From a virus (lineage: Duplodnaviria; Heunggongvirae; Uroviricota; Caudoviricetes), in IMG/VR virus record IMGVR_UViG_2718218135_000001, positions 32,001 to 96,000 of that record: a stretch of DNA of 64,000 bases; one strand, 5' to 3'. Within the stretch, counting starts at the first letter, position 1. Every line of letters begins with the position of its first letter. Below are positions 1 to 44,751 of this stretch, piece by piece. The notes beneath the pieces are model-generated. The model was not told the origin of the DNA. It ran no database searches and saw only the letters and a list, made by a program, of their open reading frames with translations. Both the position numbers and the translations under genes were made by a program.

Positions 1-72
1 AAAAACGACTCGTGATACCACCCAAAAACAGACACGCTCAGAAGCGCTCCCGTTGCGTTATATTGGACATCT

Positions 73-86
73 AAACAAGTTGTTTT
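73..86. promoter_or_regulatory. AAACAA-N2-TTGTTT operator-like palindrome (copy 1)
   Basis: aaacaagttgtttt; same palindrome recurs at least 10 times in the window; here it precedes the A+C-rich non-coding tract. Confidence 0.45.
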
Positions 87-799
87 CAGACACAAGAAAA
101 CAAGCTAACCACACCCACAGGAAACCCAGAGACGCCATTACCCACATTCCCAAAAACAACCAACCTCTTTATGGCAGGCTACTGAAAAGACCCACCTCTT
201 CTTCCCAGGCTACCGGACAACCAACCTAACTTTCACAGGCAACTCGAAACATTCATACATGCGATACCCACTACACGCCATTCCCCAAACAGCGAATAAA
301 CACCAGAACCACTGAAACTCTAACGAAGCCTGTTACCGCAAGGACTCCCTCAATCCCCAAAGACACGAAACAGAACATTCGCGGGGAAACGCCATTACTC
401 AATACACAAATAACCACAAAAGCCTTTCACGCTCTCAAGACAAACAACTCAAATACAATAACGAAAGGAATCGCCCACCTGCCATTACTCCATACACAGA
501 GAAGAACAATCACCAAAACAACGAGAACAACCCTGACGAAAACACAGAGAAGAACCACCTCAAGAAGAACGAAACCACATATGCCGGTAGAAAGAACAAA
601 CCACCCATTTCACCCACAGGAATAGTCGCCGTATTGAGCGTTATCAGAGAGAAGGTTTATGCCCACATAAGAGAGAAAATTCGTGGGAGGTATAAGTGGG
701 AAGGGAAGGAGGGGTATCGCCACTTTCTTCGTATAAATTCAAGCCATAGTTTTCATCCCCCGTAACGTCCCTATCCACCCCTTCGGTCAGCCTTCGGGC

Positions 800-1000
800 C
801 ATCCAGGGAAAAGGCCATGTCCCTTTTCAGAAACGGGAGCGTCGCCGCAGGGAAAAGGCTGGAGGTTTTCAGGGAAACGGTGGGAATCCCGCTATACGAA
901 CCGGGAAAAGGCTGGCTGCCGGTCGGGAAACGGGTACATCCCGGTACAGAGCGAGGGACGACTGCGGGAGCGGTGCGGGAAATCTTCGGGAATGCGCCTT
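800..1000. repeat. iteron-like direct repeats
   Basis: repeated units AGGGAAAAGGC...TTTTCAG(A/G)GAAACGG at about 806, 850, 871, 903, 924, 977; the three overlapping ORFs here translate to low-complexity sequence. Confidence 0.5.
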
Positions 1001-1273
1001 GCTCTTCGCTCGCCTGAAAATCGCGAGGGAGTGTCGTTCCCTCTCGTGCAGCTGCTGAACTCCATTCTGCCAGACCATCCTCGGGTCTCAAGCGATTTCA
1101 GTAGGTTTTCGGGGAGAAGAAAATTCTGCCCACCAGCCCTGCGGCGCGCGTAGAGCAGAATATCGTAAATACTGGTTCCCGTGTCGTTCCCGGATATTCA
1201 CTGCCCAGCCTGGCTTTCACGACATAAAATCCTTTTTCGCCTTTGTCTTATTGCGACAATAACACCAACAAGT

Positions 1274-1287
1274 AAACAACATGTTTA
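1274..1287. promoter_or_regulatory. AAACAA-N2-TTGTTT operator-like palindrome
   Basis: aaacaacatgttta, 32 bp upstream of ATG 1319. Confidence 0.5.
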
Positions 1288-1318
1288 GACGTTATATAAA
1301 CGAAGTGAGGATGAAGAG

Positions 1319-1537
1319 ATGATTAAGATGCCTGTGACGGTTGAGGTGTGGGGCGTGGATTCCCTGGCTGAGTGTCTGGATGCAGTGGGGCCGGAGTTGT
1401 ACCGCAAGTTGTGGTCGTTCGTCCCGGCAGAAGGGGAATCGCCCAAAGGGAAGGATATCTGGCACCTGCTTAGTGAAGATGAAAAGCGGGAGCTGGTGGA
1501 CGCGGTACACAGCGAGTTCCCGGACGACGAAGATTAA
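1319..1537 (+). CDS. hypothetical small acidic protein (72 aa)
   Basis: ORF with GAGGA RBS and upstream operator palindrome. Confidence 0.5.
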   Translation: MIKMPVTVEVWGVDSLAECLDAVGPELYRKLWSFVPAEGESPKGKDIWHLLSEDEKRELVDAVHSEFPDDED

Positions 1538-1650
1538 GAGTGAGACCACCAGCACGGTGGCTTTTGTCGCTATTAACCTCCGGGGCAGCGCAGCACCGTA
1601 ACGATATACTTTGTGGCCGTTTTCTTACTGGTATTGTTTACGCAATTCAG

Positions 1651-1666
1651 AAAACAACATGTTTAA
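1651..1666. promoter_or_regulatory. AAACAA-N2-TTGTTT operator-like palindrome
   Basis: aaaacaacatgtttaa inside a ~60-bp promoter cassette that is duplicated at 2100-2158. Confidence 0.5.
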
Positions 1667-1676
1667 GGATTGCTTT

Positions 1677-2006
1677 ATGTTTGCAAATATCGACATCAAC
1701 CAAATCAAGAAAATGACTCAAAAAGAGTTTGACCAGTTTTATGAGTTAGAAGGTTGGTCTTCCACGCTGATCAATTCGCGCTGGGTGCTTGAGCTGATGA
1801 CTCGTGATGATGCTCCTGCTTTGATTATTTGCGACATGGGTGAAGATGCTGACTTTATGGATATGAGCGAATTTTGTGTGGACACATACAACCGCAGCCA
1901 GAAGTACTACTTCACATGCGATAGCGAGAATGACGTGATTTCTAAGCTCTATCTTCACCTTGTCCAGCATTGGGACGTGCAGGAATTCCTTGAGTTATTC
2001 GCGTAA
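1677..2006 (+). CDS. hypothetical protein (109 aa)
   Basis: in-frame ATG with AAGGA RBS 8 nt upstream; the longer track ORF start at 1611 lies inside the operator. Confidence 0.5.
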   Translation: MFANIDINQIKKMTQKEFDQFYELEGWSSTLINSRWVLELMTRDDAPALIICDMGEDADFMDMSEFCVDTYNRSQKYYFTCDSENDVISKLYLHLVQHWDVQEFLELFA

Positions 2007-2016
2007 GCCCAACCAA

Positions 2017-2037
2017 AGCCAGCACCGCCTGCTGGCT
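2017..2037 (+). terminator. hairpin after CDS (weak terminator candidate)
   Basis: agccagc-N7-gctggct stem, no clear T tract. Confidence 0.35.
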
Positions 2038-2140
2038 TAACTTCTCTGTAGCCGCAGGGAAGAACCACCTTTAGATAATTCATGTGCCTGAGCAATATGC
2101 TTTGTAGCCGTTTTTACACTGGTATTATTTACGCCATTGA

Positions 2141-2157
2141 GAAAACAATTTGTTTAC
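2141..2157. promoter_or_regulatory. AAACAA-N2-TTGTTT operator-like palindrome
   Basis: gaaaacaatttgtttac, 10 bp upstream of ATG 2167. Confidence 0.5.
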
Positions 2158-2166
2158 GGAGTGGTG

Positions 2167-2478
2167 ATGAATACTTCATTGGTGCTGGGTCTTGCTGAAG
2201 GCCAGGAGAGAAAAGAAAAACCAACCTTAATGGGGCATCTCACATTGCTGGATATCGTAGCGAATGGGACTTCTATCCGTCTGTTTCGTGAAAAAGCCAT
2301 TACCTTCGACGCGGGCAATTTTACGCGCTATGTGATGGTAGTTCGTCGCCAGCGTGGAAGAGGGTGGATGTCGGTCCAGAAAATGTGGCCAGAGGACCAG
2401 CTTGAACTGGCGCTGATGGAAGCCAACCGTGTCGCCCAACAAGAGATCCAACGAGCGTCTGTTCAGGCGGTAGCTTAA
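2167..2478 (+). CDS. hypothetical protein (103 aa)
   Basis: ATG with GGAGTGG RBS; followed by intrinsic terminator. Confidence 0.5.
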   Translation: MNTSLVLGLAEGQERKEKPTLMGHLTLLDIVANGTSIRLFREKAITFDAGNFTRYVMVVRRQRGRGWMSVQKMWPEDQLELALMEANRVAQQEIQRASVQAVA

Positions 2479-2513
2479 ACATGTGCAAGCAGTAGTTAGT
2501 CGAATGTACGACA

Positions 2514-2540
2514 GCCCCGCCAATCCTTCGGGGCTTTTTT
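2514..2540 (+). terminator. rho-independent terminator
   Basis: gccccg-loop-cggggc stem followed by TTTTTT. Confidence 0.7.
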
Positions 2541-2544
2541 GTAT

Positions 2545-2560
2545 TGTAAGTACTTACTTA
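2545..2560. promoter_or_regulatory. TAAGTA-N-TACTTA palindromic box (second motif family)
   Basis: tgtaagtacttactta immediately after the terminator and 40 bp before gene 2600. Confidence 0.5.
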
Positions 2561-2599
2561 TGATAATAAAATTAAAAATTAAACACTAAGGAGAGTGAA

Positions 2600-2995
2600 A
2601 TGACCGTTAAACGCGAAAATCTGACCCTGGATATGTATTATGCATCAGAGACGGAAAATGGAGACAAAGTTGCAAAAATTACAATTGTGCTACGCGATAA
2701 TACCTCCGGCGAAGAAGTTCACACCAGTACCTTAACTCGCACCGGCGAGGCCACAAAGGGGAAATATTCGGTGCGTTACCAAAGCATCAGTAATGCTTCT
2801 GACCCTTTACTGATAAAACTGGAAACTCATTTCCGTGGCGCGGATCAGACGTTGTTTGAAAATTTGATGAAAAAGGTCGATACGGTTTATACATCGAGTT
2901 TAAATACCAATAGTACCTGGATGGGACAACACGGTCTGCGAATAATCTCCGGCGAAAAGATCGACACCATTGTCCCTGAAAGCGTATTCGCTTAA
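2600..2995 (+). CDS. hypothetical protein (131 aa)
   Basis: strong RBS AAGGAGAG; terminator downstream. Confidence 0.55.
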   Translation: MTVKRENLTLDMYYASETENGDKVAKITIVLRDNTSGEEVHTSTLTRTGEATKGKYSVRYQSISNASDPLLIKLETHFRGADQTLFENLMKKVDTVYTSSLNTNSTWMGQHGLRIISGEKIDTIVPESVFA

Positions 2996-3007
2996 TCCTC
3001 TTTGAAT

Positions 3008-3032
3008 GGCGCGTAAACCGCGCCATTTTCTT
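3008..3032 (+). terminator. rho-independent terminator
   Basis: ggcgcg-taaac-cgcgcc hairpin followed by ATTTTCTT. Confidence 0.6.
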
Positions 3033-3041
3033 ATGCCCGAT

Positions 3042-3054
3042 AACAATTTGTTTT
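3042..3054. promoter_or_regulatory. AAACAA-N2-TTGTTT operator-like palindrome (half-degenerate)
   Basis: aacaatttgtttt upstream of gene 3113. Confidence 0.4.
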
Positions 3055-3112
3055 CTGCCTTATCTGATTTGTGAAAATGATTTCACTGAAGCAACTTAAT
3101 AAGGAAACCATC

Positions 3113-3487
3113 ATGGGACTTGATATCTATATCGAGACGCAGCCTAAAAACGATCTGAATAACGAGGCATCCAGAAAGCAGGTTGCTTACTTCCGTAAGT
3201 TCAATGCGCTCGTTGGGTGGATGGAGCGCAACGTAGGTGAAGTCGAAAATTGTGAGCTTTTAGAATTAACGATGAATGACATTTGTTTTCTGAAGGCTCA
3301 TTTGATGCACATAAACGAAAGTAATTGCGAAGAGTACTTGCCTACCCAGGAAGGTTTTTTCTTCGGCAGTCAGGAGTACGATGAAGGTTACTGGCATGAC
3401 GTGGATAAGCTGAAAAAACTTGTGGAAGACCTGATCAGGAACCACGACTTTCACAATAACAGACTGACGTTCCGTGCCTGGTGGTAA
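3113..3487 (+). CDS. hypothetical protein (124 aa)
   Basis: in-frame ATG with AAGGA RBS; the track ORF begins at GTG 3071. Confidence 0.5.
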   Translation: MGLDIYIETQPKNDLNNEASRKQVAYFRKFNALVGWMERNVGEVENCELLELTMNDICFLKAHLMHINESNCEEYLPTQEGFFFGSQEYDEGYWHDVDKLKKLVEDLIRNHDFHNNRLTFRAWW

Positions 3488-3489
3488 AT

Positions 3490-3633
3490 ATGGGCGATTT
3501 CAAGAAACGCCTGAAGGAAAGAGCCGAGATGGTCAGAAATCAAAACGCATCTTCTGTCATCAGATACGCAAGGCAGTTTAGTCGCAACAACAAATCAGTT
3601 GAGGAAAAGATCCTTAGCGCAATCGGGCGATAA
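3490..3633 (+). CDS. possible small basic protein (47 aa)
   Basis: ATG overlaps the upstream stop (TAAATATG); below the ORF-track length cutoff; hand-translated. Confidence 0.25.
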   Translation: MGDFKKRLKERAEMVRNQNASSVIRYARQFSRNNKSVEEKILSAIGR

Positions 3634-3638
3634 TTATT

Positions 3639-3662
3639 AAGGCCACCAGCAGTGGTGGCCTT
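3639..3662. terminator. 10-bp stem hairpin (terminator-like)
   Basis: aaggccacca-gcag-tggtggcctt perfect stem; no T tract. Confidence 0.35.
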
Positions 3663-3803
3663 AAATGACCATCCTGTTTCCCGCAGGCTAAAAACACCAA
3701 CCTCTTACCTCCAGGCAACCGACAAACCCACCTGTTCCCGTCCGGCTACCGCAACTTTCCACTTTGACGCCTTATTCGTACAACGATAATTAACACCAAC
3801 AAG

Positions 3804-3816
3804 AAAACAATTTGTT
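3804..3816. promoter_or_regulatory. AAACAA-N2-TTGTTT operator-like palindrome
   Basis: aaaacaatttgtt, 22 bp upstream of ATG 3838; flanking acaccaacaag element is shared with the 1260 copy. Confidence 0.5.
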
Positions 3817-3837
3817 ATTTACGATAAGGAATTAATC

Positions 3838-4320
3838 ATGAATTTTATCGCTACTGTAAACGCACCCGCACATGGCAATATCGCTGTAACGTTCTCTGAC
3901 ATTGAAAAACGAGTACTTGGTGCATGGCGCGACAATGAGACGGTAGAACTGTCAGCACAAGAAAAATGCATTATTGCACGCGACATCATTGGCAATCGTC
4001 GTTACTCGCGGGTATTTGAGAAAGCATATGTGGTAAATTCTGGATTCGGAACGTTCGTCTTTCCGGTGCGCTCCGGGCGATTCTGCCAGTCCAAGCTGAT
4101 TGAGTTCGCTACGCAGATTTCTGTCTGGATTAAAACTCAATCGTCGTTCAAATTTTCCGACGATGAAGCAGTATCGCAGGGGATGCGGATCGCCAACAAT
4201 GCAATAAAATGCAAAAACATTACGTATGCCGCTGGCGTTGACACATGGAAACTGTTTTGCGCTAACTTTATGCTGAATGTATACGCAAGCAACCGCATCC
4301 ACATCCTTGATGGCGTGTAA
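3838..4320 (+). CDS. hypothetical protein (160 aa)
   Basis: ORF with AAGGA RBS. Confidence 0.55.
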   Translation: MNFIATVNAPAHGNIAVTFSDIEKRVLGAWRDNETVELSAQEKCIIARDIIGNRRYSRVFEKAYVVNSGFGTFVFPVRSGRFCQSKLIEFATQISVWIKTQSSFKFSDDEAVSQGMRIANNAIKCKNITYAAGVDTWKLFCANFMLNVYASNRIHILDGV

Positions 4321-4328
4321 CTGAGAAG

Positions 4329-4352
4329 AGGGCCAGAAACGGCCCTTTCTCT
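4329..4352 (+). terminator. terminator-like hairpin
   Basis: agggcc-agaaac-ggccct followed by TTCTCT. Confidence 0.5.
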
Positions 4353-4368
4353 ATAGCCACCAGCTGCC

Positions 4369-4450
4369 GCAGGGAAATTTTCAGAAACGGCGAGGAACGC
4401 ATTCATGAGCCGAAGGGAAACGACCATGAAATTTTCTGGAAACGGCGGGG
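4369..4450. repeat. second cluster of iteron-like repeats
   Basis: agggaaattttcagaaacggcg and agggaaacgaccatgaaattttctggaaacggcg; same unit as at 800-1000. Confidence 0.45.
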
Positions 4451-4913
4451 GTCGCCTTTATGTAGAAAACTGAGCGGGAGAAACCCGGAATCGCGCCAGA
4501 AATTGCATAGCGGCGCTGGGTAGTTGCTGGTGGGCTTTCAGCCCCTGGGCCATCCAGATAGCTTTCGCTATGTGATTATGTGAATCCGTGGGTAAATCAC
4601 TGTAAGCGCGTACACGTTGCCCAACGTGGCAATCATATGCGAGCGGATACAAAACAACACAAAGAGCCGATCCGCGCCGACAAATAAACGCGGATCACAT
4701 AGCAAGACTAAAAGCCAATGATTAACCATACTCTATAGCGCAATATAACGCGTTTTAAGCGCGTTAATGTGTTAAGTAATGGGTATGTACTGACAAGGAT
4801 ATAAAAGCGCGTCTATGGCGTTATTTTGGTGCTTATTTTTATGTTGTTGGAGTGAGTTAAAGACAATAAAAAACGCGCCATCATTGGCGCGTTATGGTGG
4901 GAGTATTGGAAAC

Positions 4914-4950
4914 GAAAAAAGCGCCCATAGTGGGCGCTCGATTTTATTTG
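4914..4950. terminator. bidirectional intrinsic terminator
   Basis: A-run, palindrome gcgcccatagtgggcgc, then T-rich tract; identical palindrome recurs at 5194-5212. Confidence 0.55.
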
Positions 4951-5174
4951 TGTAAACTGATTTCAAATCCTATTTCTACAAACGCTTTCAACATTAAAAA
5001 GATATCAGCGTCATTCACGTCTGCTTTTTTTCGCTCCTGGTCGTTCAATAAGTCAATTTTGCGCGTTGTTTCATTTATAAACTCGACTGCGCGCCCAGCG
5101 ATCCCAGCGATCCCAGCGATGCGATTAACATAATATTCATTATGGACGTTAACGCCAGCGATAAGAACAAACAT
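4944..5174 (-). CDS. small protein (76 aa) with IAG x3 repeat
   Basis: AAGGAG RBS; contains the 9-bp tandem repeat. Confidence 0.5.
   Translation of the reverse strand: MFVLIAGVNVHNEYYVNRIAGIAGIAGRAVEFINETTRKIDLLNDQERKKADVNDADIFLMLKAFVEIGFEISLHK
5094..5120. repeat. 9-bp tandem repeat x3 (cccagcgat)
   Basis: direct reading; encodes IAGIAGIAG on the minus strand. Confidence 0.8.
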
Positions 5175-5192
5175 GATTAAGCTCCTTAAAAC

Positions 5193-5213
5193 TAGCGCCC
5201 ATAGTGGGCGCTA
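5193..5213. terminator. palindrome identical to the 4921 copy (terminator-like)
   Basis: tagcgcccatagtgggcgcta, between two minus-strand genes. Confidence 0.4.
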
Positions 5214-5224
5214 TATCCATCTAA

Positions 5225-5875
5225 TTACGCTTTGAAAGCATCAGCCAGATAGTTATAAAAATCATTTTTAACGAAGCGATATTGCTGTGATCCGTTTTTC
5301 GCTGCACCCATTCCTTTGATTTTTTCGACCAGTCCCAGACGTTCGCAAAGATTGATAAGCTGGTTGGCTTGAGTGTATCCAGCGTCTAATTTTATTTCGT
5401 TGGCTTTTTTCGCTTCATTCATTAAATCGAAAACAGCGCCATTAGTGAACGTCTCGATCTCGTCGTTAATCATATCGATTAGAGCGAATACGCGAGATCC
5501 GGACATATCAGCGACGGAATAAACGCATTTACCAGACTTAATGGATTTAACCAGATAAACCAATTTTTCCAGTGAATAACTATTAGTCATTGCTTCGCGG
5601 AAAAATGCTTCAGGTGCTTGTTTGCTTGCTTTAATCGCGTAGTAAAACACGCCAGCTAATTTTTCATCATTAACAGCGTTTAAAACGTTGTTCGTGAAAT
5701 AAGCTAATTTAGTAGACGCTGCAAGCATGTTAGCTTTATCCGCTTTTGTGTGTGTACCATTTTTATAATGATTGTTATAAGTCTGGGTAGCGTTGTTGGC
5801 TGCAACTTGTAACTCATTAGCGATAACCACAGCAGCGTCGATGATAGCTTTTTTAGAAATGGTAACGTTAGACAT
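5225..5875 (-). CDS. hypothetical protein (216 aa), AT-rich island
   Basis: ORF with AAGGA RBS; no recognisable motif. Confidence 0.55.
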   Translation of the reverse strand: MSNVTISKKAIIDAAVVIANELQVAANNATQTYNNHYKNGTHTKADKANMLAASTKLAYFTNNVLNAVNDEKLAGVFYYAIKASKQAPEAFFREAMTNSYSLEKLVYLVKSIKSGKCVYSVADMSGSRVFALIDMINDEIETFTNGAVFDLMNEAKKANEIKLDAGYTQANQLINLCERLGLVEKIKGMGAAKNGSQQYRFVKNDFYNYLADAFKA

Positions 5876-6189
5876 GATGTTAATCCTTAATAAGAGTAAA
5901 AATAAAATTCTTGTATCGTTAGCGTGTTCGCTTTCGATGTGAGTAATTATCGATATGCAGAAATTAAAATCAAGAGTTTTTTACGCGGGAGCGAAAAAAT
6001 TTTTATTCAATAAAAATCAAAGTCTTAGAAATAAAACGCGTTTTCTCGAAGGTGTTGCCTAAATAAATTCCCTATTCGGTCAATCACCCTTATATATTTA
6101 AAGTGAAATCGGGATTAGGGAAAATAAATATAACGGGAAGTGACACATAAAATAATAACCGGACTTAGCCGGTTATCACCCTTATAGAT

Positions 6190-6714
6190 TTAAAACGGTA
6201 AAATCCGTTCGACCCAATCGAAGAGAACTATCGTTCGTCCGCGCTCGCCAACTCTCATTGCGACCTGACAGGCATCAACGCCTAACGAACACCCCTCAAT
6301 TTCACGGCCATCCGCCATGTAGACCCTTATAGACTTTTGCGCCTCATGAGCTTGACGACAAATTTTGAAGAAATCGCGGCGAGATGGCCGATTGTCCACA
6401 TAGTCAGGGTGTACAGTGAGCCTACCTGTAAACATCTTGTCCACTTCGACAGGTGTAATTGTTTCTATGGTGCTAACTCGCTCCAATGGAAGACGAACAC
6501 GATGTTCTTTACTTCCTATAACGGGAGAAAGATCTAGCTTATTGCGTGCGGTAAGCAGACCAATAACGTAAAGACAAAACGTCTGACCATCATCGATCGT
6601 GACCCTTACAGGTATATTCCTTGCCCGTAGGAACTGCAAACTAAACTCCACGTTAGAGTAGTCGCGGGGCCAGACCTCTGCTGGGATGCCGTATGTAATG
6701 TCTGTGATCGTCAT
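6190..6714 (-). CDS. hypothetical protein (174 aa), translationally coupled to upstream gene
   Basis: start overlaps upstream stop (TAATG). Confidence 0.55.
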   Translation of the reverse strand: MTITDITYGIPAEVWPRDYSNVEFSLQFLRARNIPVRVTIDDGQTFCLYVIGLLTARNKLDLSPVIGSKEHRVRLPLERVSTIETITPVEVDKMFTGRLTVHPDYVDNRPSRRDFFKICRQAHEAQKSIRVYMADGREIEGCSLGVDACQVAMRVGERGRTIVLFDWVERILPF

Positions 6715-10109: not shown

Positions 10110-10808
10110 ATGGATTGTATCAAAAATATGGATGTGAAAATTACGATTCTACAGGTGGAAGTCGCGAACCTGCGTCCGAACCCCTGGAATACCAACTCCG
10201 TTGGGGCGCAAAACTTCGAAAAACTGAAAGGTTCCATCGAAAAGTTGGGCTTTTTTAAGCCAATTCTGGCGCGAGAGCTGGACGGCGGCATTTTTGAGAT
10301 TCTCGGTGGCGAACATCGCTGGCGTGCCGCGATGGAGCAGGGCATTTCAACGGTTCCCGTAATGTCGGTGGGAAAAATTAACGACCTGGTGGCCAAACAG
10401 ATGTCTCTCGTCGATAACGAGCGCTACGGCGAAGACGATCAGATCGCTTTGCAACGCTTAATCGAAGAAATTCAGTCTGAAATTGACTACCGGTTGTCTG
10501 ATATCGCCCCGTATGACGACGAAATGGCGGCAACGCTCGCCAAAGCATCCGTTATCGATCTTGAAGCGCTGGAAGCGCTCTCCCGCGGCGATGACGAGCC
10601 GGTCGGTGAGGACAAACGCGAGAAAATCGAGCGAGTCGGTGCTGAACACCAGACGATGCGCTTCAAGGTGACGTTCGATGCGTCAGATCGCGTCGCCGAT
10701 ACCATCAAAACCATCATCAAAGAGCAGGGAATCAATACCGGTAACGAAATGGAGAACGCCGGGGAAGCCTTGGTGTGGCTGGTCGACTACTACAAGGAGC
10801 GTATGTAA
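10110..10808 (+). CDS. ParB-like nuclease-domain protein 1
   Basis: ParB/Srx N-domain signature LRPNPWN ... GGEHRWRAA; start choice uncertain. Confidence 0.7.
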   Translation: MDCIKNMDVKITILQVEVANLRPNPWNTNSVGAQNFEKLKGSIEKLGFFKPILARELDGGIFEILGGEHRWRAAMEQGISTVPVMSVGKINDLVAKQMSLVDNERYGEDDQIALQRLIEEIQSEIDYRLSDIAPYDDEMAATLAKASVIDLEALEALSRGDDEPVGEDKREKIERVGAEHQTMRFKVTFDASDRVADTIKTIIKEQGINTGNEMENAGEALVWLVDYYKERM

Positions 10809-11476
10809 TGACCAAGAACTTTGAAATCGTATATCGAAACCCGGCAGAACTTATCCCGTATGAGATGAACGCCAAAAAACATGACGAACAGCAGATCCAC
10901 GACCTGGCGGCTGCCATCAAAAAGCGCGGTTTTGACCAGCCGATCACGGTCGACAAGCACGACGTCATCATTACTGGTCACGGTCGTCGCGAGGCGGCAC
11001 TTCTGGCTGGTCTGGAGCGTGTGCCTGTCATCGTTCGCGACGATCTGAGCGAAGAAGAAGTGAAGGCGAAGCGTCTTGAAGACAACCGCCTGGCCAGTAT
11101 TGACTACGACGCCATCAAATTGCAGCAGGAACTGGAGTCCCTGGTGCTGGGTGACGTTGAGGTCTTTGGTTTTGAAGAGCGAGAGCTGAACGTGCTTGTT
11201 GGCAGCATGACCGAAGAGATGGAAACAGGCTCTCTGGTGCTCGATCTGGGTGAAGAGACGGAACGCCAGAAAGAAGAGCACACCGAGATCAGTCGCGAAG
11301 TGGCCTCTGAAGAAGTCCGAGTCATCGACGTATTGGGCTTTAAAACGCTCCCTGCTGGCTCTGCCATTGTGGTTGGGGATTTGCTTGCCCACATGGAAGA
11401 AATTACGGGAGAAAGCGGGGTAGACGCTTTCGTGGCGTATGCGGAGAAAGTTTCCTCTGGGGAGCTGGCTGCATGA
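10808..11476 (+). CDS. ParB-like nuclease-domain protein 2
   Basis: HGRREAA arginine motif; start overlaps upstream stop (TAATG). Confidence 0.7.
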   Translation: MTKNFEIVYRNPAELIPYEMNAKKHDEQQIHDLAAAIKKRGFDQPITVDKHDVIITGHGRREAALLAGLERVPVIVRDDLSEEEVKAKRLEDNRLASIDYDAIKLQQELESLVLGDVEVFGFEERELNVLVGSMTEEMETGSLVLDLGEETERQKEEHTEISREVASEEVRVIDVLGFKTLPAGSAIVVGDLLAHMEEITGESGVDAFVAYAEKVSSGELAA

Positions 11477-12111
11477 GCAAATACACCATCAACGTATCGT
11501 TTCAGACCCGCGTGAACAAAACCACGCGCACGCTGGAGATTGCCGAATCGTTCGGTCTTGGCCTGGACGAAAAAGAGTGGACGCTTTACGACAATCTGGA
11601 GCTGGAAGTGAAGCAGGGCGATGTGGTGTACATCACCGGCCAATCCGGTTCCGGTAAATCCGTTGTGCTGCGCGAGCTGCAACGCCAGATGAAGGATGAA
11701 GGGCTTTCTGTAGCCTCCATCGATGACTTTGCCTTCGACAATGAGGTTAACGTCATTGACCAGCTGGGCAAAACCACCAGCGAAGCGCTGGGGCTGCTGT
11801 CTATGGCCGGATTGAATGACGCCTATCTCTTTGTGCGTAAGCCATTCGAGATGTCTGACGGCCAGAAATACCGTCTCAAGATCGCCAAGCTGATCGAGTC
11901 CGGCGCGAAAGTCTGGGCTGCCGACGAATTTGGCGCTGTTCTCGACCGTGTAACCGCCCAGGTTGTGGCGTCGAACCTCCAGCGTGCCGCCCGTAAGGTT
12001 GGTGCGACGGTAATGGTGGCGACGACCCACGAAGACCTGAAGAACGCGCTGCGCCCGGATATGCAGATCACCAAGCACTACAAAGAACGCGTGAAGGTGG
12101 AATATGCCTGA
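11473..12111 (+). CDS. compact ABC-type ATPase (212 aa)
   Basis: Walker A GQSGSGKS, signature-like SDGQKYRL, Walker B VWAADEF, H-loop TTHE; ATGA overlap with upstream gene. Confidence 0.7.
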   Translation: MSKYTINVSFQTRVNKTTRTLEIAESFGLGLDEKEWTLYDNLELEVKQGDVVYITGQSGSGKSVVLRELQRQMKDEGLSVASIDDFAFDNEVNVIDQLGKTTSEALGLLSMAGLNDAYLFVRKPFEMSDGQKYRLKIAKLIESGAKVWAADEFGAVLDRVTAQVVASNLQRAARKVGATVMVATTHEDLKNALRPDMQITKHYKERVKVEYA

Positions 12112-12358
12112 TTTGAAGATCGTAGAGCTGAAGCCATCGAAAGAGGCTGACAACAACAACGTTGAAGTCATCCGCCTGCTGGAAGAAGCACTCCAGTACG
12201 CCAGAGAAGGCAAAAGCCAGAGCCTGGCACTGCTGATGATCAACAACGACGGCAGTGTGCTGGATTGCTGGCATAACGGTGGGCGTCCATACGTCATGGT
12301 TGGGGCGATAGAATCGCTTCGCCTGGACTTCATCAATGCCAATATCGAGCGTAGGTGA
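12104..12358 (+). CDS. hypothetical protein (84 aa)
   Basis: overlaps neighbours on both sides. Confidence 0.45.
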   Translation: MPDLKIVELKPSKEADNNNVEVIRLLEEALQYAREGKSQSLALLMINNDGSVLDCWHNGGRPYVMVGAIESLRLDFINANIERR

Positions 12359-13726: not shown

Positions 13727-14368
13727 ATGACTGTAGAAAAAGACGAGAGCAAAACTCGCCTGACACCAGCTGAGTGGGCAGAAGCCGAAGCGAAATGGAC
13801 TTCTGGCGAATACACACTCTCCAGGCTGGAGGAAGAGTACGGCATTCGTCGTGAAACGCTCTCCAGACATTTCAAAAAGCGTGGATTAGAGAAAGGCGCG
13901 GACTCCGTTGGGAAGATGGTGCGCGAGTCGCTCAAATCCGACGCAGAGCTGCGTGCGAAGGCGCGTGCAGAGAAAATCGAAGAGCGCCGGACTCGTTACG
14001 ACGATTGGGCGTTCGCACTCGGTCGTATGGTGATGCATGAGGTGGCCATAGCCAAGAAGGACGGCAGGCCACTGGCAGCCATCGAAGATGACCTGAAGAG
14101 TCTCCAGCGTGCCAGCGGCACACTTGCTAAGTGCTTCGAAATATCGTCGAAAGCGCTCGGTATGGATCGCGTGGAGAACGAGGACGACGAAATCCCGAAC
14201 CTGGTATTTGGCGAACTTACGCCTTCCCAGGTGGCGCAGCTGCGTAAGGAAGATGATGAGCCGGATCTGATTGATGACGATCTGCTTGAGTCACTCGAAG
14301 AGGAAGCACTGAGCGAAGCTGAGGGCGATTCTGAAGCGTCTGGTGATGAAAGTGATGGGAGCGTCTGA
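13727..14368 (+). CDS. terminase small subunit (putative)
   Basis: 213 aa immediately upstream of TerL; acidic C-terminal tail. Confidence 0.55.
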   Translation: MTVEKDESKTRLTPAEWAEAEAKWTSGEYTLSRLEEEYGIRRETLSRHFKKRGLEKGADSVGKMVRESLKSDAELRAKARAEKIEERRTRYDDWAFALGRMVMHEVAIAKKDGRPLAAIEDDLKSLQRASGTLAKCFEISSKALGMDRVENEDDEIPNLVFGELTPSQVAQLRKEDDEPDLIDDDLLESLEEEALSEAEGDSEASGDESDGSV

Positions 14369-14370
14369 CT

Positions 14371-15627
14371 ATGGCCATCCCGTCGTCTCTGAGTCTCGTA
14401 CAGCTGCATTCTGGGCAGATGCAAGTCTTCCAGTCGCCACATCGTTTCAAAGTGGTGTGTGCGGGTCGACGCTGGGGTAAATCCCGGTTGTCGATCTCCA
14501 CCATCATCCGCGCGGCAGCCAAAGAGAAGAAGCAACGTGTCTGGTATGTCGCACCGACTTACCAGATGGCTCGCCAGATCTTGTGGGATGACCTGCAGGA
14601 AGTTCTGCCGCGCAAATGGGTTCGTAAGAAAAACGACACCACGATGACCATCGTGCTGAAGAACGGCTCTGAAATCGCGCTGAAAGGTGCGGATAAGCCC
14701 GATACGCTTCGTGGTGTGGCACTGCACTTTGTGGTGCTCGATGAATTTCAGGATATGAAGCCTGACACCTGGTACAAGGTACTGCGTCCGACACTGTCCT
14801 CCACCCGTGGCGGTGCGCTGATCATCGGTACGCCAAAAGGCTTCTCCGAGTTCCACAAGCTGTGGACTATCGGTCAGAACAAAGATTTGCAACGCAAGGG
14901 GCAGTGGAAGAGCTGGCAGTTCGTTACGGCCGATTCTCCGTTCGTACCGAGCGCGGAAATCGAAGCAGCGAAGAACGATATGGACCCTAAATCGTTCGCA
15001 CAGGAATACCTGGCCAGCTTCGAAAACATGTCCGGACGCGTTTACTACCCGTTCGACCGCAATGTGCATGTGAAGCCACTCCAGTTCAATCCGAAACTGC
15101 CGATCTGGGTTGGTCAGGACTTCAACATCGACCCTATGTCATCGGTCATCCTGCAACCGCAGCCAAATGGTGAACTGTGGGCTGTGGACGAATTGGTGTT
15201 GTTCTCTTCTAACACGGCTGAAGTGTGTGACGAGCTGGAGCGTCGATACTGGCGCTGGAAATCTCAGGTCACTATCTTTCCTGACCCGGCAGGTGCGTAT
15301 CGCCAGCACGCACGCGGCGAATCTGACGTCGACATCTTCAAAGAGAAAGGTTTCCTTCGAGTCGATTATCCGAAGAAGCACCCGCCGATCGCAGACCGTG
15401 TTAACGCAGTGAACCGCATGTTGATGAGTGCCTCGGGCGAAACCCGGTTGTACATCGATCCGAAGTGCAAACACCTCATCGACTCGCTGGAGAAGGTGAT
15501 CTACAAGCCAGGCTCACGCGATATGGATAAGACTGGCGGCATCGAACACAGTGCGGATGCGTTGGGTTATCCGGTTCATCGTAGGTATCCGGTGAAAAAT
15601 CGTGTTATTCTTGGTGGATCTAGATAG
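14371..15627 (+). CDS. terminase large subunit
   Basis: Walker A CAGRRWGKS, Walker B VVLDEF, C-terminal nuclease-type acidic residues. Confidence 0.85.
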   Translation: MAIPSSLSLVQLHSGQMQVFQSPHRFKVVCAGRRWGKSRLSISTIIRAAAKEKKQRVWYVAPTYQMARQILWDDLQEVLPRKWVRKKNDTTMTIVLKNGSEIALKGADKPDTLRGVALHFVVLDEFQDMKPDTWYKVLRPTLSSTRGGALIIGTPKGFSEFHKLWTIGQNKDLQRKGQWKSWQFVTADSPFVPSAEIEAAKNDMDPKSFAQEYLASFENMSGRVYYPFDRNVHVKPLQFNPKLPIWVGQDFNIDPMSSVILQPQPNGELWAVDELVLFSSNTAEVCDELERRYWRWKSQVTIFPDPAGAYRQHARGESDVDIFKEKGFLRVDYPKKHPPIADRVNAVNRMLMSASGETRLYIDPKCKHLIDSLEKVIYKPGSRDMDKTGGIEHSADALGYPVHRRYPVKNRVILGGSR

Positions 15628-30835: not shown

Positions 30836-33800
30836 ATGGAACAGTTCAAGAAGAAAAAGTTACCGCTGTTTATTGCCGGTGCGGGTGGTAAAAAAAGTAG
30901 CAAAAGCTCCAGCCGTACACCGGTTGAAGCCGACGATACCGTAAATTCTCGTGCAATGGCCGCTATCCTCGATCTTCTTGGGGAAGGGGTAATTGGCGGC
31001 TTAGTAAATGGCGCAAGATCTATTTTTATCGACGATCTGCCGATTGTAAATGAAGACGGTTCCTCCAACTTCAGCGGAATCACATGGGATTTTCGCGACG
31101 GTTCACAAGACCAGACTCCAATGTCTGGCTTTGATTTCGTTGAAACGCCTAAATCCGTCAATATCCAGTTAAAAAAAACGCATTATGTAACGGTTTCAAT
31201 CGATAACGATGAAGCTGATCGGGTTCGTGTCATCATGAAGTTTCCTTCTTTGCGAAGCATAGATAAAAAAACTGGTGACACGAACGGTACGACTGTTGAG
31301 TACAAGTTCCAGATAGCAAATGGCGACTCAACATTTGTAGATGTGGTCGCGGAAGGTGAAAAAAGCGTTGGCATTAAGCTAACAGCAAAGAAGACCGGCG
31401 TTTATTACCGTAGCTATGAGCTGAAGCTGCCTAAGCCTGGACGAGCATACAAGGTTCGTGTAGTCCGTATTACCGATGATAACAGTAGCCAGTATCTCTA
31501 TAACGATACATGGGTGGATTCAATCGGGGAAATTGTCGATACACCGATGAACTATCCAAACTCTGTTTTGGTTGGATTGAAGGTAAACTCTGAGCAATTC
31601 GGCAGCACCATGCCATCTCGCTCTTATCTGGTGCGTGGCCTAAAAATTCGAGTACCTTCAAACTATAACGAGTCCAGTAACACTTACGCTGGGGTATGGG
31701 ATGGCACTTTTAAGCTGTTGTCTTCTTCGAACCCCGCGTGGATTCTCTTTGATTTGCTGACCAATGCTCGATATGGCCTTGGTCAGTATGTGTCGGAATC
31801 TATGATTGACCTTGGCCAGTTGTACCAGATTGGTCGATATTGTGACGAAGAGGTCGATGATGGCTTTGGTGGCAAAGAGAAACGCTTTGCAATCAATACG
31901 CAGATCACCAGTCGACAGGACGCATACCGGCTAATTCAGGATATTGCTGGAGCATTCCGCGGCATGGTGTTTTGGGCTGGTGGGATGGTTAACATCATGC
32001 AGGATAGCCCATCAGATCCGGTAATGATGTTTACCAACTCTAACGTCAAAGATGGATTGTTTACCTATAAAGGTTCTGCGCGTAAAGATCGCCCATCCGT
32101 TGCGCTCGTAACCTACAACAACAAGGAGGACGGTTATAAGCAAAACATCGAGTACGTTGAAGATCAGGACGCAATGCGCCGTTATGGTGAGCGTAAGACA
32201 GAAGTCGTAGCATTTGGCTGTACAAGCCGAGGGCAGGCTCACCGAGTTGGTTTGTGGCTTTTGTATACCGCCAGAATGGAGTCGGATGTAATTACATTTA
32301 CTGCCGGCTTAGACGCGTCATTTTTGATGCCTGGTGAAACCGTTCTGATTCAGAACAAATATCGCGCAGGCAAACGTAACTCAGGTCGAATTGTGGCGTT
32401 TACCAAAAACAGCGTCACACTCGATGCGCCTGTGTCGTTAGCCAAAGGCGGCTGCTTTATTCGAATACTGAATCAGGAAGGCAAAATCGTTGAACGCGAT
32501 GCTCTTGAAACTGGCGAAAATATAACAAAAGTTACGTTTTCAAAAGCCCTGTCGTCAGCGGAAACGCCTGTTTTGAACGGTGTCTGGACAATTACAGAAC
32601 CAGATCTCGAACCTATGCGCGTTCGCATCGTTAACATCGCTCAGGGGGAAACGTCGGGTAGCTTTGACATCACCGCTGTTGAAAACAATCCGTCTAAATA
32701 TGAGGCGATCGACAATGGTGCAACGCTTATCCCGCAGAATACGACGGTATTGGACCCGACTTACTCCAAGCCGTCTAATTTGCAAATCACTGAAGGGACT
32801 TATCTCTCAAGCCCGGGCAACCTGTCAGTAAAACTGACTGCAACATGGGAAGGGAAATCTCCAGAGTATTGGATCAGTTGGCGACGTTCTGATGCAAACA
32901 ATGTATCGAACTGGCAATCGACGCGTGTAACCGAAGAGCAATACGAAATCGTTAATGTCGCGGAGAATGGACGCTACGACTTCCAACTGTATGCGGTTTC
33001 ATTCAACGGTAAAAAAACAGAAATTATCAGCACCGTCTACAAAGTTCAGGGGACGATGACGCCGCCGGATGCACCGACTGCACTGACGGCCGTGGGCGAC
33101 TACCGCAACGTGATTCTGAATTGGGTTAACCCGGACTCAATCGACCTCGATCACATCAACGTGTATGCATCCCGGACCAACAACCTGGACACTGCAAAAC
33201 TAATTGCCGAAGCAGCCAGTACCACCTTTACGCACGCAGGTCTTGGAGATAGCGAAACTTGGTTCTATTGGGTTCGTGCAGCAAACAAACGCGGAATGTT
33301 GAGCCAGCCGAACTCCAATTTGGGCACTGAGGCGATGACGAAAGATGTTCTGTCTTTCCTGACCGGGAAGATCACTTCTTCGGAATTGGGGCAGGAACTG
33401 CTTGAGGAAATCGACACCAAAGCCTCGCAGGAAGCCGTCGACGCAATCAACAAGCAGATGGAAGAAAGCCTGAAAAGCCTTGATGACAAATTTACTGAGA
33501 CCGATCAACGGATTGAAGAAGCCCAAAACGTTCTTAGAACGGAAGTTTCTAATACTGCCAGCAAGGTGGAAGAGGCTCTTAAGGAGGTTGAAAACTCAAA
33601 TGCCGCATTAATTCAGTTGAAGGAAACTGTTTCAGAGCAGGACAAGGTCGTTGCTGGAGCGGTTGAGGCCGCGAATGCAGCACTGGACAATTCATCGGCT
33701 TTAGTTGCGGAGGAACGTGAGGCACGAGTCGAAGGCGACTTGGCGAACGCGAAAGAAATCGAGGCAATGAAGTCAACTGTAGATAGCAGTTTGGCCACCA

Positions 33801-41849: not shown

Positions 41850-41863
41850 AAAACAAGTTGTTT
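41850..41863. promoter_or_regulatory. AAACAA-N2-TTGTTT operator-like palindrome
   Basis: aaaacaagttgttt, 36 bp upstream of parA-like ATG. Confidence 0.5.
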
Positions 41864-41898: not shown

Positions 41899-42564
41899 AT
41901 GACCAAGATCATTGTGGTTGGCGGCACAAAAGGCGGCCCAGGCAAATCTACCGTTGCCCAGCAAATTGCGGTATGTCTCAAAGTTAAAAAGAAAAAGAAG
42001 GTTCACGTCACCGATATCGATATCCAGCGCACCACGACCAGCTGGTGTGAAGACCGTCGCCAGAACGAAGATCTTGAACTGATCCCGTTCGCTTATGTGC
42101 AGGACGACATCGTCAAACATCTTAAATCGCTTCAGGGGCGAACTGATTATGTAGTGGTAGATGCTGGTGGCTTTGACTCCGAAATTCAGCGTCTGGCGAT
42201 GCTTATGGCTGATGTAATCATCATCCCGCTGCGCCCTAAACGTCGTGATTTGAAATCTCTGCGTGATATCGACCCGATTATCGACAACGTTCGCAATGTG
42301 AACGAGAAAGTTAAGATCCGCGCGGTAATAAACCAGTGTCCGTCATTGCCTTCCCAGGTATCACGTATTCTGGCCGCGAAGGAAATTGTCGAAACTTTCG
42401 GCATCGAGGCTGCGCCGGTCAATCTGTACAACCGTAACGTTTATGACGATGCGGAAGAGGCAGGTCGTTCTATCTTTGAAATGACTGGCGCTGAACGCGA
42501 TAAGAAGGCAGAAGCCGAGTTCGAAGAGTTTGTAGATTACATCTTGAGTCTGGAGGAAGAATAA
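41899..42564 (+). CDS. parA: ParA-family partition ATPase (small, type Ib-like)
   Basis: deviant Walker A GGTKGGPGKST; 221 aa. Confidence 0.85.
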   Translation: MTKIIVVGGTKGGPGKSTVAQQIAVCLKVKKKKKVHVTDIDIQRTTTSWCEDRRQNEDLELIPFAYVQDDIVKHLKSLQGRTDYVVVDAGGFDSEIQRLAMLMADVIIIPLRPKRRDLKSLRDIDPIIDNVRNVNEKVKIRAVINQCPSLPSQVSRILAAKEIVETFGIEAAPVNLYNRNVYDDAEEAGRSIFEMTGAERDKKAEAEFEEFVDYILSLEEE

Positions 42565-44025: not shown

Positions 44026-44751
44026 GTGAGCCAGATCTTCTTCAACACTATCGACAATGACCAGTACGATTTCATGACAGAGTGGAATACCGCTGTTATG
44101 GACAAGTGGGTCGCTGAAAACATTGGTTTGTCGCGCTGTAAAGACGAGGCTGAACTCTTCGAGACGAAGTGGTTTGATTACCGCGACATGCACCCACTTA
44201 TGGCCACATGCCTTTTCACTGAGGCATACAAGCGCCAGTACTCATACATCATGCTGTCGCATGGTCGTGAACACTATGAGACGGCTCCATTCACAACCGG
44301 TCTGAAGCGTGTGCCATATCAGGAGTTGTCGACGGTCAACAAAACGTCGCTCTGGAAAGCACGCCAGTTTGCTGACCGCTATTGCTGCTCATACGACTAC
44401 TTTATCTCCACCGTTCTTTCCGCAGCTGCACGACGGCTGTGGGACAAATTACCGCGCCCCCAGCATCTCTGGCAGCCCGAGTTGATCGAGATATTCGAAG
44501 AGAAGTTAGCCAAACGCGCTGTAACCCGTCTGGATGACTCTCTGGTGAGTTTTAAGCATCTTGGAGACATGCAGCGTGACCCGATTCAGGAACGCTATTT
44601 TGAGTGGATTCTGGAGCGTCTGCGTGGCATTACCCGAGATAAACGCATCCGTATCATCTTCTCCGCTGTCTGGTTGATGGAAATCGTGCCTGAGCGTGTG
44701 ATTTACGCGCACTTCCCGGAAGAACTGGAAGAAGCACGGCGATTCTGTTGA
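44026..44751 (+). CDS. hypothetical protein (241 aa), possible replication accessory
   Basis: GTG start; directly upstream of helicase. Confidence 0.45.
   Translation: MSQIFFNTIDNDQYDFMTEWNTAVMDKWVAENIGLSRCKDEAELFETKWFDYRDMHPLMATCLFTEAYKRQYSYIMLSHGREHYETAPFTTGLKRVPYQELSTVNKTSLWKARQFADRYCCSYDYFISTVLSAAARRLWDKLPRPQHLWQPELIEIFEEKLAKRAVTRLDDSLVSFKHLGDMQRDPIQERYFEWILERLRGITRDKRIRIIFSAVWLMEIVPERVIYAHFPEELEEARRFC

Follow-up and report, generated by a model that had tools for sequence, protein, structure and literature searches.

The array and its setting

The 64,000-nt window analysed here (positions 32,001–96,000 of IMG/VR record IMGVR_UViG_2718218135_000001; coordinates below are those of the window unless another contig is named) belongs to an SSU5/pHCM2-type phage-plasmid, and carries close to its left end a non-coding array of short direct repeats, termed array 1. 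The first 3 kb match Salmonella phage SSU5, the Escherichia phages Cyrano (pLF82) and PhiR41_1, and related Klebsiella phage-plasmids. The Prokaryotic Genome Annotation Pipeline (PGAP), run on a plasmid of 99.4% identity, places no feature between a 186-amino-acid (aa) gene and the homologue of the gene at 1319, which encodes 72 aa. This empty gap of 1.6 kb, of which the last 1.3 kb lies inside the window, contains array 1, is present and unannotated in every relative fetched, and in SSU5 is apparently the largest non-coding gap of the genome.

Searches of PLSDB matched region 1–1320 to 392 plasmids (megablast) and region 600–1300 to 717 (blastn), the latter nearly all non-mobilizable IncFIB plasmids of ~100–115 kb; the host genera are Escherichia, Klebsiella, Enterobacter, Salmonella, Citrobacter and Cronobacter. 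Among 5,426 complete E. coli genomes, matches to this region lie on plasmids in 244 and never on a chromosome. The array region is kept in plasmids that have lost phage genes via IS26. A scan of genome contigs with the neighbouring 72-aa protein returned three loci only.

Array 1 (804–936, + strand) consists of six direct units, defined by motif matches and by a register conserved in relatives. The motif GGGAAAMGG occurs at 806, 850, 872, 903 and 925, always on the + strand, and has a single further match in the window (20071, − strand; 128 kb over both strands). Dinucleotide-preserving shuffles gave a mean of 0.91 matches, with six or more in 0 of 100. The shorter core GAAA[AC]GG brings in a sixth unit, CAGAAACGG at 828–836, so that six + strand GAAA(A/C)GG cores lie in 808–927, starting at 808, 830, 852, 874, 905 and 927, with core-to-core spacings of 22, 22, 22, 31 and 22 bp. 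The repeat array placed at 800–1000 by the initial annotation is thus confirmed, at a spacing tighter than the ~20–45 bp it had given.

From left to right, all on the + strand, the units are U1 CAGGGAAAAGGCC (804), U2 CAGAAACGGGA (828), U3 CAGGGAAAAGGCTGG (848), U4 CAGGGAAACGGTGG (870), U5 CCGGGAAAAGGCTGG (901) and U6 TCGGGAAACGGGT (923), and their fuller core is GGGAAAMGGCTGG. Units of the form GGGAAAAGGCYGG alternate with units of the form (TTTTC)RGGAAACGG, TTTTCAG preceding units 2 and 4 (824 and 866). Around 13 bp are conserved in each 22-bp unit, a degeneracy that accounts for the failure of Tandem Repeats Finder, proposed initially as a check, to report an array at 800–1000; a general repeat search recovers repeat families at array 1.

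Conservation of the register

Twenty-one relatives were aligned, falling into three clades: that of the window and SSU5, that of pLF82/Cyrano (~70% identity), and a Klebsiella/Cronobacter clade (~66%). The addition of 76 further loci from IMG/VR gave 106 distinct arrays, with 368 spacings and 160 distinct units. Across the clades the cores persist while the spacers diverge, as in CCATGTCCCTTTTC versus CTGCATCCCGCTAC. The E. coli clades retain spacings of 22, 22, 22, 31 and 22; in the Klebsiella clade these are 42, 22, 22 and 22, the 31-bp step having become 22, a shift of about one helical turn.

Over the 106 distinct arrays, a spacing of exactly 22 bp accounts for 236 of the 368, as against six of 21 or 23; values of 31, 33/34, 42, 44, 48 or 53 bp make up most of the remainder. 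Those of 31, 33/34 and 42 lie near whole turns, while 44 and 53 are sums of 22 and 31, one unit having escaped the search pattern; 48 (18 cases, in the second array described below) fits neither whole turns nor such sums. The number of units varies from three to six among relatives, through gain or loss of whole units. Relative to the 70%-identical clade, no gap events fall in the 155-bp array, against three in the 195 bp on its left and seven in the 500-bp tract beyond. On this comparative evidence, the register is under selection.

A second array, and the same 9-mer in unrelated contigs

A smaller copy of the motif family, array 2, lies at 4334–4450 on the + strand. It comprises CCAGAAACGGCCC in a hairpin loop (4334), GCCGCAGGGAAATTTTCAGAAACGG (4366–4390), which fuses two pieces of array 1, AAGGGAAACGA (4412) and TCTGGAAACGGCGG (4435), all on the + strand, the last pair being 22–23 bp apart; a pair GGGAAACG-N-TTTTCTGGAAACGG occurs within it. 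The two arrays share one orientation, are 3.5 kb apart and flank an island of early genes; a scan over the first 100 kb of SSU5 (genome size 103 kb) found no other cluster of the motif. Beyond array 2, the only Rfam match nearby, a weak one to the small RNA Hrs1 (4865–4931, + strand; 32 bits against a gathering score of 56.4, E 0.0026) overlies the bidirectional terminator pair that ends the unit of array 2, and is probably a mere hairpin match.

A set of 2.9 million viral contigs was searched for two perfect copies of GGGAAACGG 22 bp apart, and in a second search 11 bp apart. The 22-bp search gave 66 hits, of which all but three came from relatives already recovered or aligned to the window by blastn where checked (L118, L146, L160); the 11-bp search gave nine contigs. 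Outside SSU5-like elements, the arrays belong to three unrelated lineages, and in each lie no more than ~150 nt downstream of a primase/helicase gene. In all three the spacing is 10–11 bp. In the high-GC contig L122 the copies (1552–1670), six forward, some of them imperfect, and one inverted, begin 29 nt past the stop codon of a 413-aa AAA_25 protein. In the L171 group, five contigs of one lineage, GGGAAACGGTCGGGAAACGGTC (L171 2514–2533) follows a 442-aa PriCT_1 + AAA_25 gene by ~55 nt. In L174 (46% GC), four forward and three inverted copies (~12050–12200) stand at the 3' end of a 703-aa Prim-Pol + AAA_25 + HTH_24 gene. The C-terminal segment of all three primase/helicases aligns as a winged helix, confirmed by Pfam for L174 only. 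The nameable neighbours of GGGAAACGG arrays outside SSU5-like elements are always replication primase/helicases with a DNA-binding tail, and these arrays are probably the origins of those contigs.

Neither a gene nor a structured RNA

Open reading frames of 66 aa on the + strand and of 106, 69 and 57 aa on the − strand cross array 1, and are explained by the shortage of T in this G-rich sequence, which makes stop codons rare. No conserved protein-coding gene runs across the array: mismatches against five divergent relatives favour no codon position (24/26/27, 25/25/26 and 17/17/17), the longest open frame switches frame and strand among relatives, two 1-nt indels fall within the array in a 99%-identical relative, and PGAP leaves the region blank. 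A protein-coding gene at array 1 is ruled out on these grounds.

A structured RNA is likewise ruled out. A 371-nt segment folds worse than dinucleotide shuffles on both strands (z +1.18 and +1.98), and for the 360 columns of ten aligned diverse sequences RNAalifold gave −12.3 kcal/mol, its covariation term being only −1.2. A sliding consensus-fold scan of the 1.6-kb alignment, near zero on the + strand and weak on the − strand, found no conserved structure, and a search of Rfam over region 1–6000, at E up to 1, returned no match to the array and none to CsrB/RsmZ. The antitoxin repeats of a type III toxin-antitoxin system and a CRISPR array were also rejected, as the 22-bp units with ~13 conserved positions are not near-identical repeats of 28–45 nt; the genes adjoining array 1 have no toxin or cas family assignment.

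The flanking tract, promoters and early genes

Array 1 is preceded by an A+C-rich tract (1–600, + strand; A 0.40, C 0.31, G 0.14, T 0.15), which extends ~60 nt 5' of the window start (as seen in L004). Both the composition (A+C 0.68–0.73 in 43 relatives) and the sequence of the tract are conserved, and as RNA it would be practically structure-free. G-quadruplex or R-loop priming, Rho-dependent insulation, and a GcvB/Hfq sponge were weighed for this tract on sequence alone, and dropped. The tract has direct repeats of its own: GCCATTAC four times (134, 277, 391 and 481); ACCNACCTCTT..CAGGCWAC three times at a period of ~31 bp (159, 190 and 220), recurring at 3696 and 3726; and GAGAAGAAC twice. 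Between the tract and array 1 lies a highly conserved block (691–722, + strand) in which TATAAG precedes a polypurine run, GTGGGAAGGGAAGGAGGGG.

Promoter-like elements read into array 1 from both sides. The rightward element, TTGACG-18-TATA(C/T)C, lies 5' of the window start, is kept in 76 of 88 loci and is surrounded by CGTTGAY repeats. The leftward one is a conserved sigma-70-type promoter with an extended −10, TTGAGA-16-TGgCAGAAT (1064–1091, − strand); at 45 of 59 loci its hexamers are kept, as TTG(A/T)GA-16-TGgCA(G/C)AAT, while its spacer varies at many positions. Array 1 lies 120–250 bp downstream of it, and the predicted leftward transcript would cross the array and continue into the complement of the tract, which is rich in G+T. 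In the SSU5 and Citrobacter clades, ~480 bp with a − strand gene for an acidic protein of 81–113 aa (L001 5144–5386; L016 2055–2393) replace 1050–1227, including this promoter; given that gene, leftward transcription into the array is retained in the SSU5 clade. The flanking promoters therefore place array 1 between convergent transcription units, and no intrinsic terminator was found after it.

Inverted partial copies of the core occur at about +16 and about −90 relative to the leftward promoter. The first, GGGAACGACAC (1031–1041, − strand), belongs to a repeat family with two copies of GTGTCGTTCCC, and lies in a hairpin just downstream of the promoter; upstream lie two inverted partial cores, CCGGGAACGACACGGGAACC (1170–1191, − strand), with the block GTTCCCGGATA conserved across clades.

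A 14-bp palindrome, AAACAAGTTGTTTT, at the head of the tract (73–86, + strand) is dispersed through the element. In the form AAAACAA-NN-TTGTTT(T/A) it is found at 73, 1274, 1652, 2143, 3040, 3805, 13674, 41851, 44780 and 62416, lying 10–45 nt 5' of + strand start codons; it precedes the small genes at 1319, 1677, 2167, 3071 and 3838, as well as the terS-like, parA and DnaB-like helicase genes, and SSU5 has at least 14 copies. It looks like an operator, or a site in the 5' untranslated region, of a global regulator.

The 3.4-kb island bracketed by the two arrays holds six small genes (1319–4320) of PHROG families without a function. Each has its own promoter-like element (for example TGGTATTRTTTACGC at 1629 and 2120) and palindrome, and several have a terminator hairpin. 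Six Chi octamers lie in the first 4.6 kb, CCACCAGC at 1130, 1546, 3643 and 4357, and GCTGGTGG at 1492 and 4526; two of these form part of terminator hairpins, those behind the genes that end at 1537 and 3633.

Candidate binders and other genes of the window

Two proteins are plausible binders of the arrays, as candidates only. The first, a 216-aa protein (5225–5875, − strand), is encoded ~0.8 kb from array 2, is conserved in all relatives and has no family assignment. In its confident model (predicted local distance difference test, pLDDT, 84) a helical hairpin at the N terminus is joined by a winged-helix DNA-binding domain at the C terminus; kinship of this domain with the winged helices of the primase/helicases next to GGGAAACGG was rejected, hhalign showing no relation. 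The second, of 241 aa (44026–44751, + strand), is encoded upstream of the DnaB-like helicase gene and has no assigned function. It had been put forward as a candidate initiator, a role that is unsupported.

A 174-aa protein (6190–6714, − strand) matches the Pfam family Flag1_repress (FljA, the phase-1 flagellin repressor) at E 6e-69. FljA is an RNA-binding translational repressor, and the 174-aa protein could be a reader of the dispersed palindrome in 5' leaders. Further right, two consecutive ParB_N-domain proteins (232 and 233 aa; 10110–11476) and an ABC-type ATPase (212 aa) are encoded on the + strand over 10110–12111, just 5' of the terS-like and TerL genes.

The RepA origin lies elsewhere

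The real plasmid origin of the family is the locus adjoining repA, a textbook oriR. In the close relative L022 (NZ_CP086388.1, 200–800) the RepA iterons CTCTCYATAGTGGTT recur every 21 bp, as two sets with four or five copies, each set followed by GATC-rich repeats of the type GGATCTCTTTGGxTCT. These iterons share nothing with GGGAAAMGGCTGG, and repA is distant: in L022 it is ~8 kb upstream of the window, and in SSU5 the distance is 30 kb; array 1 was accordingly rejected as a RepA (IncFIB/P1-type) origin or copy-control array.

A possible origin for a second replication system

The short conserved core, rigid spacing of near-integral turns, free spacers and single orientation of array 1 argue for sites read on one face of the duplex. 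We consider it probable, on these sequence patterns, that array 1 is a phased protein-binding array on duplex DNA. As to its kind, the initial description of a protein-binding array is right; if taken to mean the RepA plasmid origin, it is wrong. Iterons are recognised by at least three direct repeats in the same orientation at a conserved period of about two turns, all of which array 1 has, and a period of ~22 bp is typical of them (R6K, P1, F, RK2).

The repeats, their conserved phase, their non-coding nature, their difference from the RepA iterons, the conserved promoters on both sides and the 9-mer beside replication genes of other phages are observed; protein binding, the identity of the binder and origin activity are inferred. 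We tentatively prefer the possibility that the arrays are origin-type iterons for the element's own replisome, with array 2 cooperating and flanking transcription activating. Arrays 1 and 2 would be helically phased recognition sites on duplex DNA, with the core GGGAAAMGGCTGG repeated at 22 bp or other near-integral turns, on which several copies of one sequence-specific protein would bind side by side along one face of the helix. They would serve a second replication system for the lytic cycle, formed by the element's DnaB-like helicase, primase, Pol III alpha and Pol I module; maintenance of the prophage as a plasmid would fall to a different system, the RepA/oriR replicon. Promoters reading into array 1 from both sides, the rightward unit carrying the dispersed palindrome, may provide transcription that opens or activates the site, and the arrays, 3.5 kb apart, may cooperate in the manner of the ori and crr sites of phage P4. 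The primase/helicase genes beside the GGGAAACGG arrays of other contigs tilt a DNA-level function towards replication.

Several known systems bear on this proposal. Theta-type iterons (P1 oriR/incA, F oriS, R6K gamma ori, RK2 oriV) are likewise tandem repeats of one orientation and ~22 bp, in non-coding DNA and with a conserved register. In contrast to these, array 1 has no DnaA boxes, GATC cluster, AT-rich neighbour or initiator gene, conserves ~13 of 22 bp, and belongs to an element whose RepA iterons lie elsewhere. Another parallel is P4, in which two clusters of short iterons 4.5 kb apart (ori and crr) are bound by the C-terminal domain of the alpha primase-helicase: here too there are two clusters a few kb apart and no dependence on DnaA boxes, and the GGGAAACGG arrays that follow winged-helix primase/helicases in unrelated contigs recall the alpha arrangement. 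Unlike in P4, the helicase (44812) and primase (46213) of the element are separate proteins, encoded 43 kb from array 1, with no detectable homologous winged helix. The P4 iteron, TGTTCACC, differs from the core of the array.

A number of observations weigh against an origin. A classical origin at array 1 was rejected, as no DnaA box or integration host factor (IHF) consensus is found in 1–5300, no GATC in 1–1768 (13 occur in the next 3.5 kb), and no AT-rich unwinding element adjoining the array; array 1 itself has 60% GC, the nearest AT-rich segment is ~300 bp off, and the nearest 60-nt window with a GC of 0.30 or less starts at 1241. No initiator gene adjoins array 1, and the ~13 conserved positions per unit are fewer than in classical iterons. 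Cumulative GC skew peaks near the array region rather than reaching its minimum there, and is uninformative since it follows gene orientation in this genome. The association with replication genes is circumstantial, because the three lineages come from a motif-driven search, and no homologue of their winged helices was found among the window proteins by phmmer, hhalign giving a probability below 1%. A literature search on the origins, small RNAs and termini of SSU5/pHCM2, and on the motif strings, found nothing relevant; the Cyrano/LF82 paper reports expression for annotated genes only (PMC9928086).

Alternative explanations

The main rival, which we consider rather unlikely, is an array for transcription control, in which a repressor or architectural protein on phased sites would form an operator cluster, roadblock or boundary. 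Such a protein would govern the convergent promoters that read into array 1; with array 2 it would also enclose the early-gene island of 3.4 kb, whose six small genes (1319–4320) are separately promoted. Several features speak for this: the arrays flank the island in one shared orientation, array 1 follows the leftward promoter at 120–250 bp with inverted partial cores on either side of that promoter, the gene of a conserved winged-helix protein lies ~0.8 kb from array 2, and the hallmarks of an origin are absent. Phased direct-repeat arrays between face-to-face promoters are also familiar from the Cox sites of P2 and the Apl sites of 186. These span tens of bp at a period of ~10–11 bp, whereas array 1 has a period of 22 bp and sits inside a 1.1-kb interval between its promoters. 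In addition, the dispersed palindrome already stands at these promoters, and transcription control leaves the 9-mer arrays beside the primase/helicase genes of other phages unexplained.

It is improbable that the array acts as RNA. In this case the purine-rich + transcript of 700–1060 would bind, for example, CsrA at (A/C)GGGA, as a CsrB-like sponge or a tag in a 3' untranslated region, or else the pyrimidine-rich − transcript would be the active one. Transcription is made likely by the promoters on both sides, and the density of GGA (~14 in 806–1030) is like that of CsrB (22 in 369 nt). The array and E. coli CsrB have in common the 11-mers TTTCAGGGAAA and ACGAACCGGGA, where our own estimate of the chance expectation is ~0.04; many units have flanking inverted repeats of 3–4 bp that would place GGGAAA in a loop, and selection for an unstructured region would also suit an RNA. 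Against this, GGA is missing from 37 of the 160 distinct units (23%), including CAGAAACGG, which is conserved at three positions, and the strict 22-nt register with shifts of about one turn fits duplex DNA, the CsrA sites of CsrB being irregularly spaced. The array also differs from CsrB and CsrC in having no stable hairpins, no dedicated or intrinsic terminator after it and no covariation. With no covariance-model match at E up to 1, GGA not in every unit and no conserved hairpins (fold z +1.18), membership of the CsrB/RsmZ family was rejected.

A broader variant, which is highly improbable, would make the whole 1.6-kb region a pair of convergent non-coding transcription units instead of a DNA site, whose RNA rewires host post-transcriptional control. 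As a decoy, this may be an A+C-rich, unstructured RNA of ~700 nt, expressed from palindrome-bearing promoters and ending in a purine-rich (A/C)GGGA tail; Rho or Hfq could act on the C/A-rich part, and CsrA on the array.

There is a similarly slim chance of a role in partition or maintenance, the arrays being centromere-like sites of the system formed by ParA and a partner of 119 aa, or else sites at which the two ParB_N proteins (10110–11476) load. The surroundings of parA (41899–42564) have no repeat array of their own: none was found beside parA or after the partner gene, where only the dispersed palindrome at 41851 lies upstream of parA. Direct-repeat centromeres, and centromeres dispersed over a genome as in N15, are known, and the region is retained in plasmids stripped of phage genes by IS26. 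The distance of 41 kb between array 1 and parA speaks against this role, and a par-linked (type Ib) centromere was rejected on that ground. Moreover, the palindrome at 41851, directly 5' of parA and present at other promoters, is a more obvious ParB or operator candidate; ribbon-helix-helix centromeres usually have periods of 7–11 bp, and ParB_N proteins normally load on palindromic parS.

Packaging, by a small terminase subunit binding the repeats as gpNu1 binds the R sites of lambda cosB, and with virion ends in the non-coding region 5' of the early genes, is the least probable of all: the resemblance of the core's reverse complement, (G/A)CCGTTTCCC, to the lambda R sites GCGTTTCCGTTCT and GTCGTTTCCTTTC (checked on the lambda sequence), the agreement of the array 2 unit GCCGTTTCCCTTC with an R site at 11 of 13 positions, the shared CGTTTCC/GGAAACG core in at least three non-coding copies tens of bp apart, and the layout, with small, separately promoted genes after a large non-coding region rich in repeats, are set against terminase genes that lie elsewhere (terS-like and TerL, 13727–15627, the terS-like start at 13727 being 12.9 kb from array 1), a terS-like protein without similarity to Nu1 (BLASTP E 9.1), a TerL with a T4-type N-terminal domain, which usually pairs with headful packaging, and two direct-orientation arrays, unexpected for cos, array 1 being all direct whereas lambda R2 is inverted. 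A lambda-type cosB was rejected on the distance of the terS-like gene and its lack of kinship to Nu1.

Significance for the phage-plasmid family

The array is undescribed in the searchable literature, specific to the family, and strongly conserved in clinically widespread phage-plasmids. SSU5/pHCM2-type elements are common in clinical Enterobacteriaceae, and some carry IS26, which is often linked to resistance genes. Besides the RepA replicon, no cis-acting site was found described for these elements. The arrays and their surrounding promoters are the best-conserved non-coding features of the family, and are therefore where one would first seek a master control region or a lytic origin. Should the origin reading be true, the family would combine two replicons as P1 does, with its separate oriR and oriL, and the array would be a concrete target for curing or incompatibility tools. 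Beyond the family, the recurrence of GGGAAACGG arrays beside primase/helicases in unrelated phages suggests a widespread, uncatalogued pairing of iterons with winged helices.

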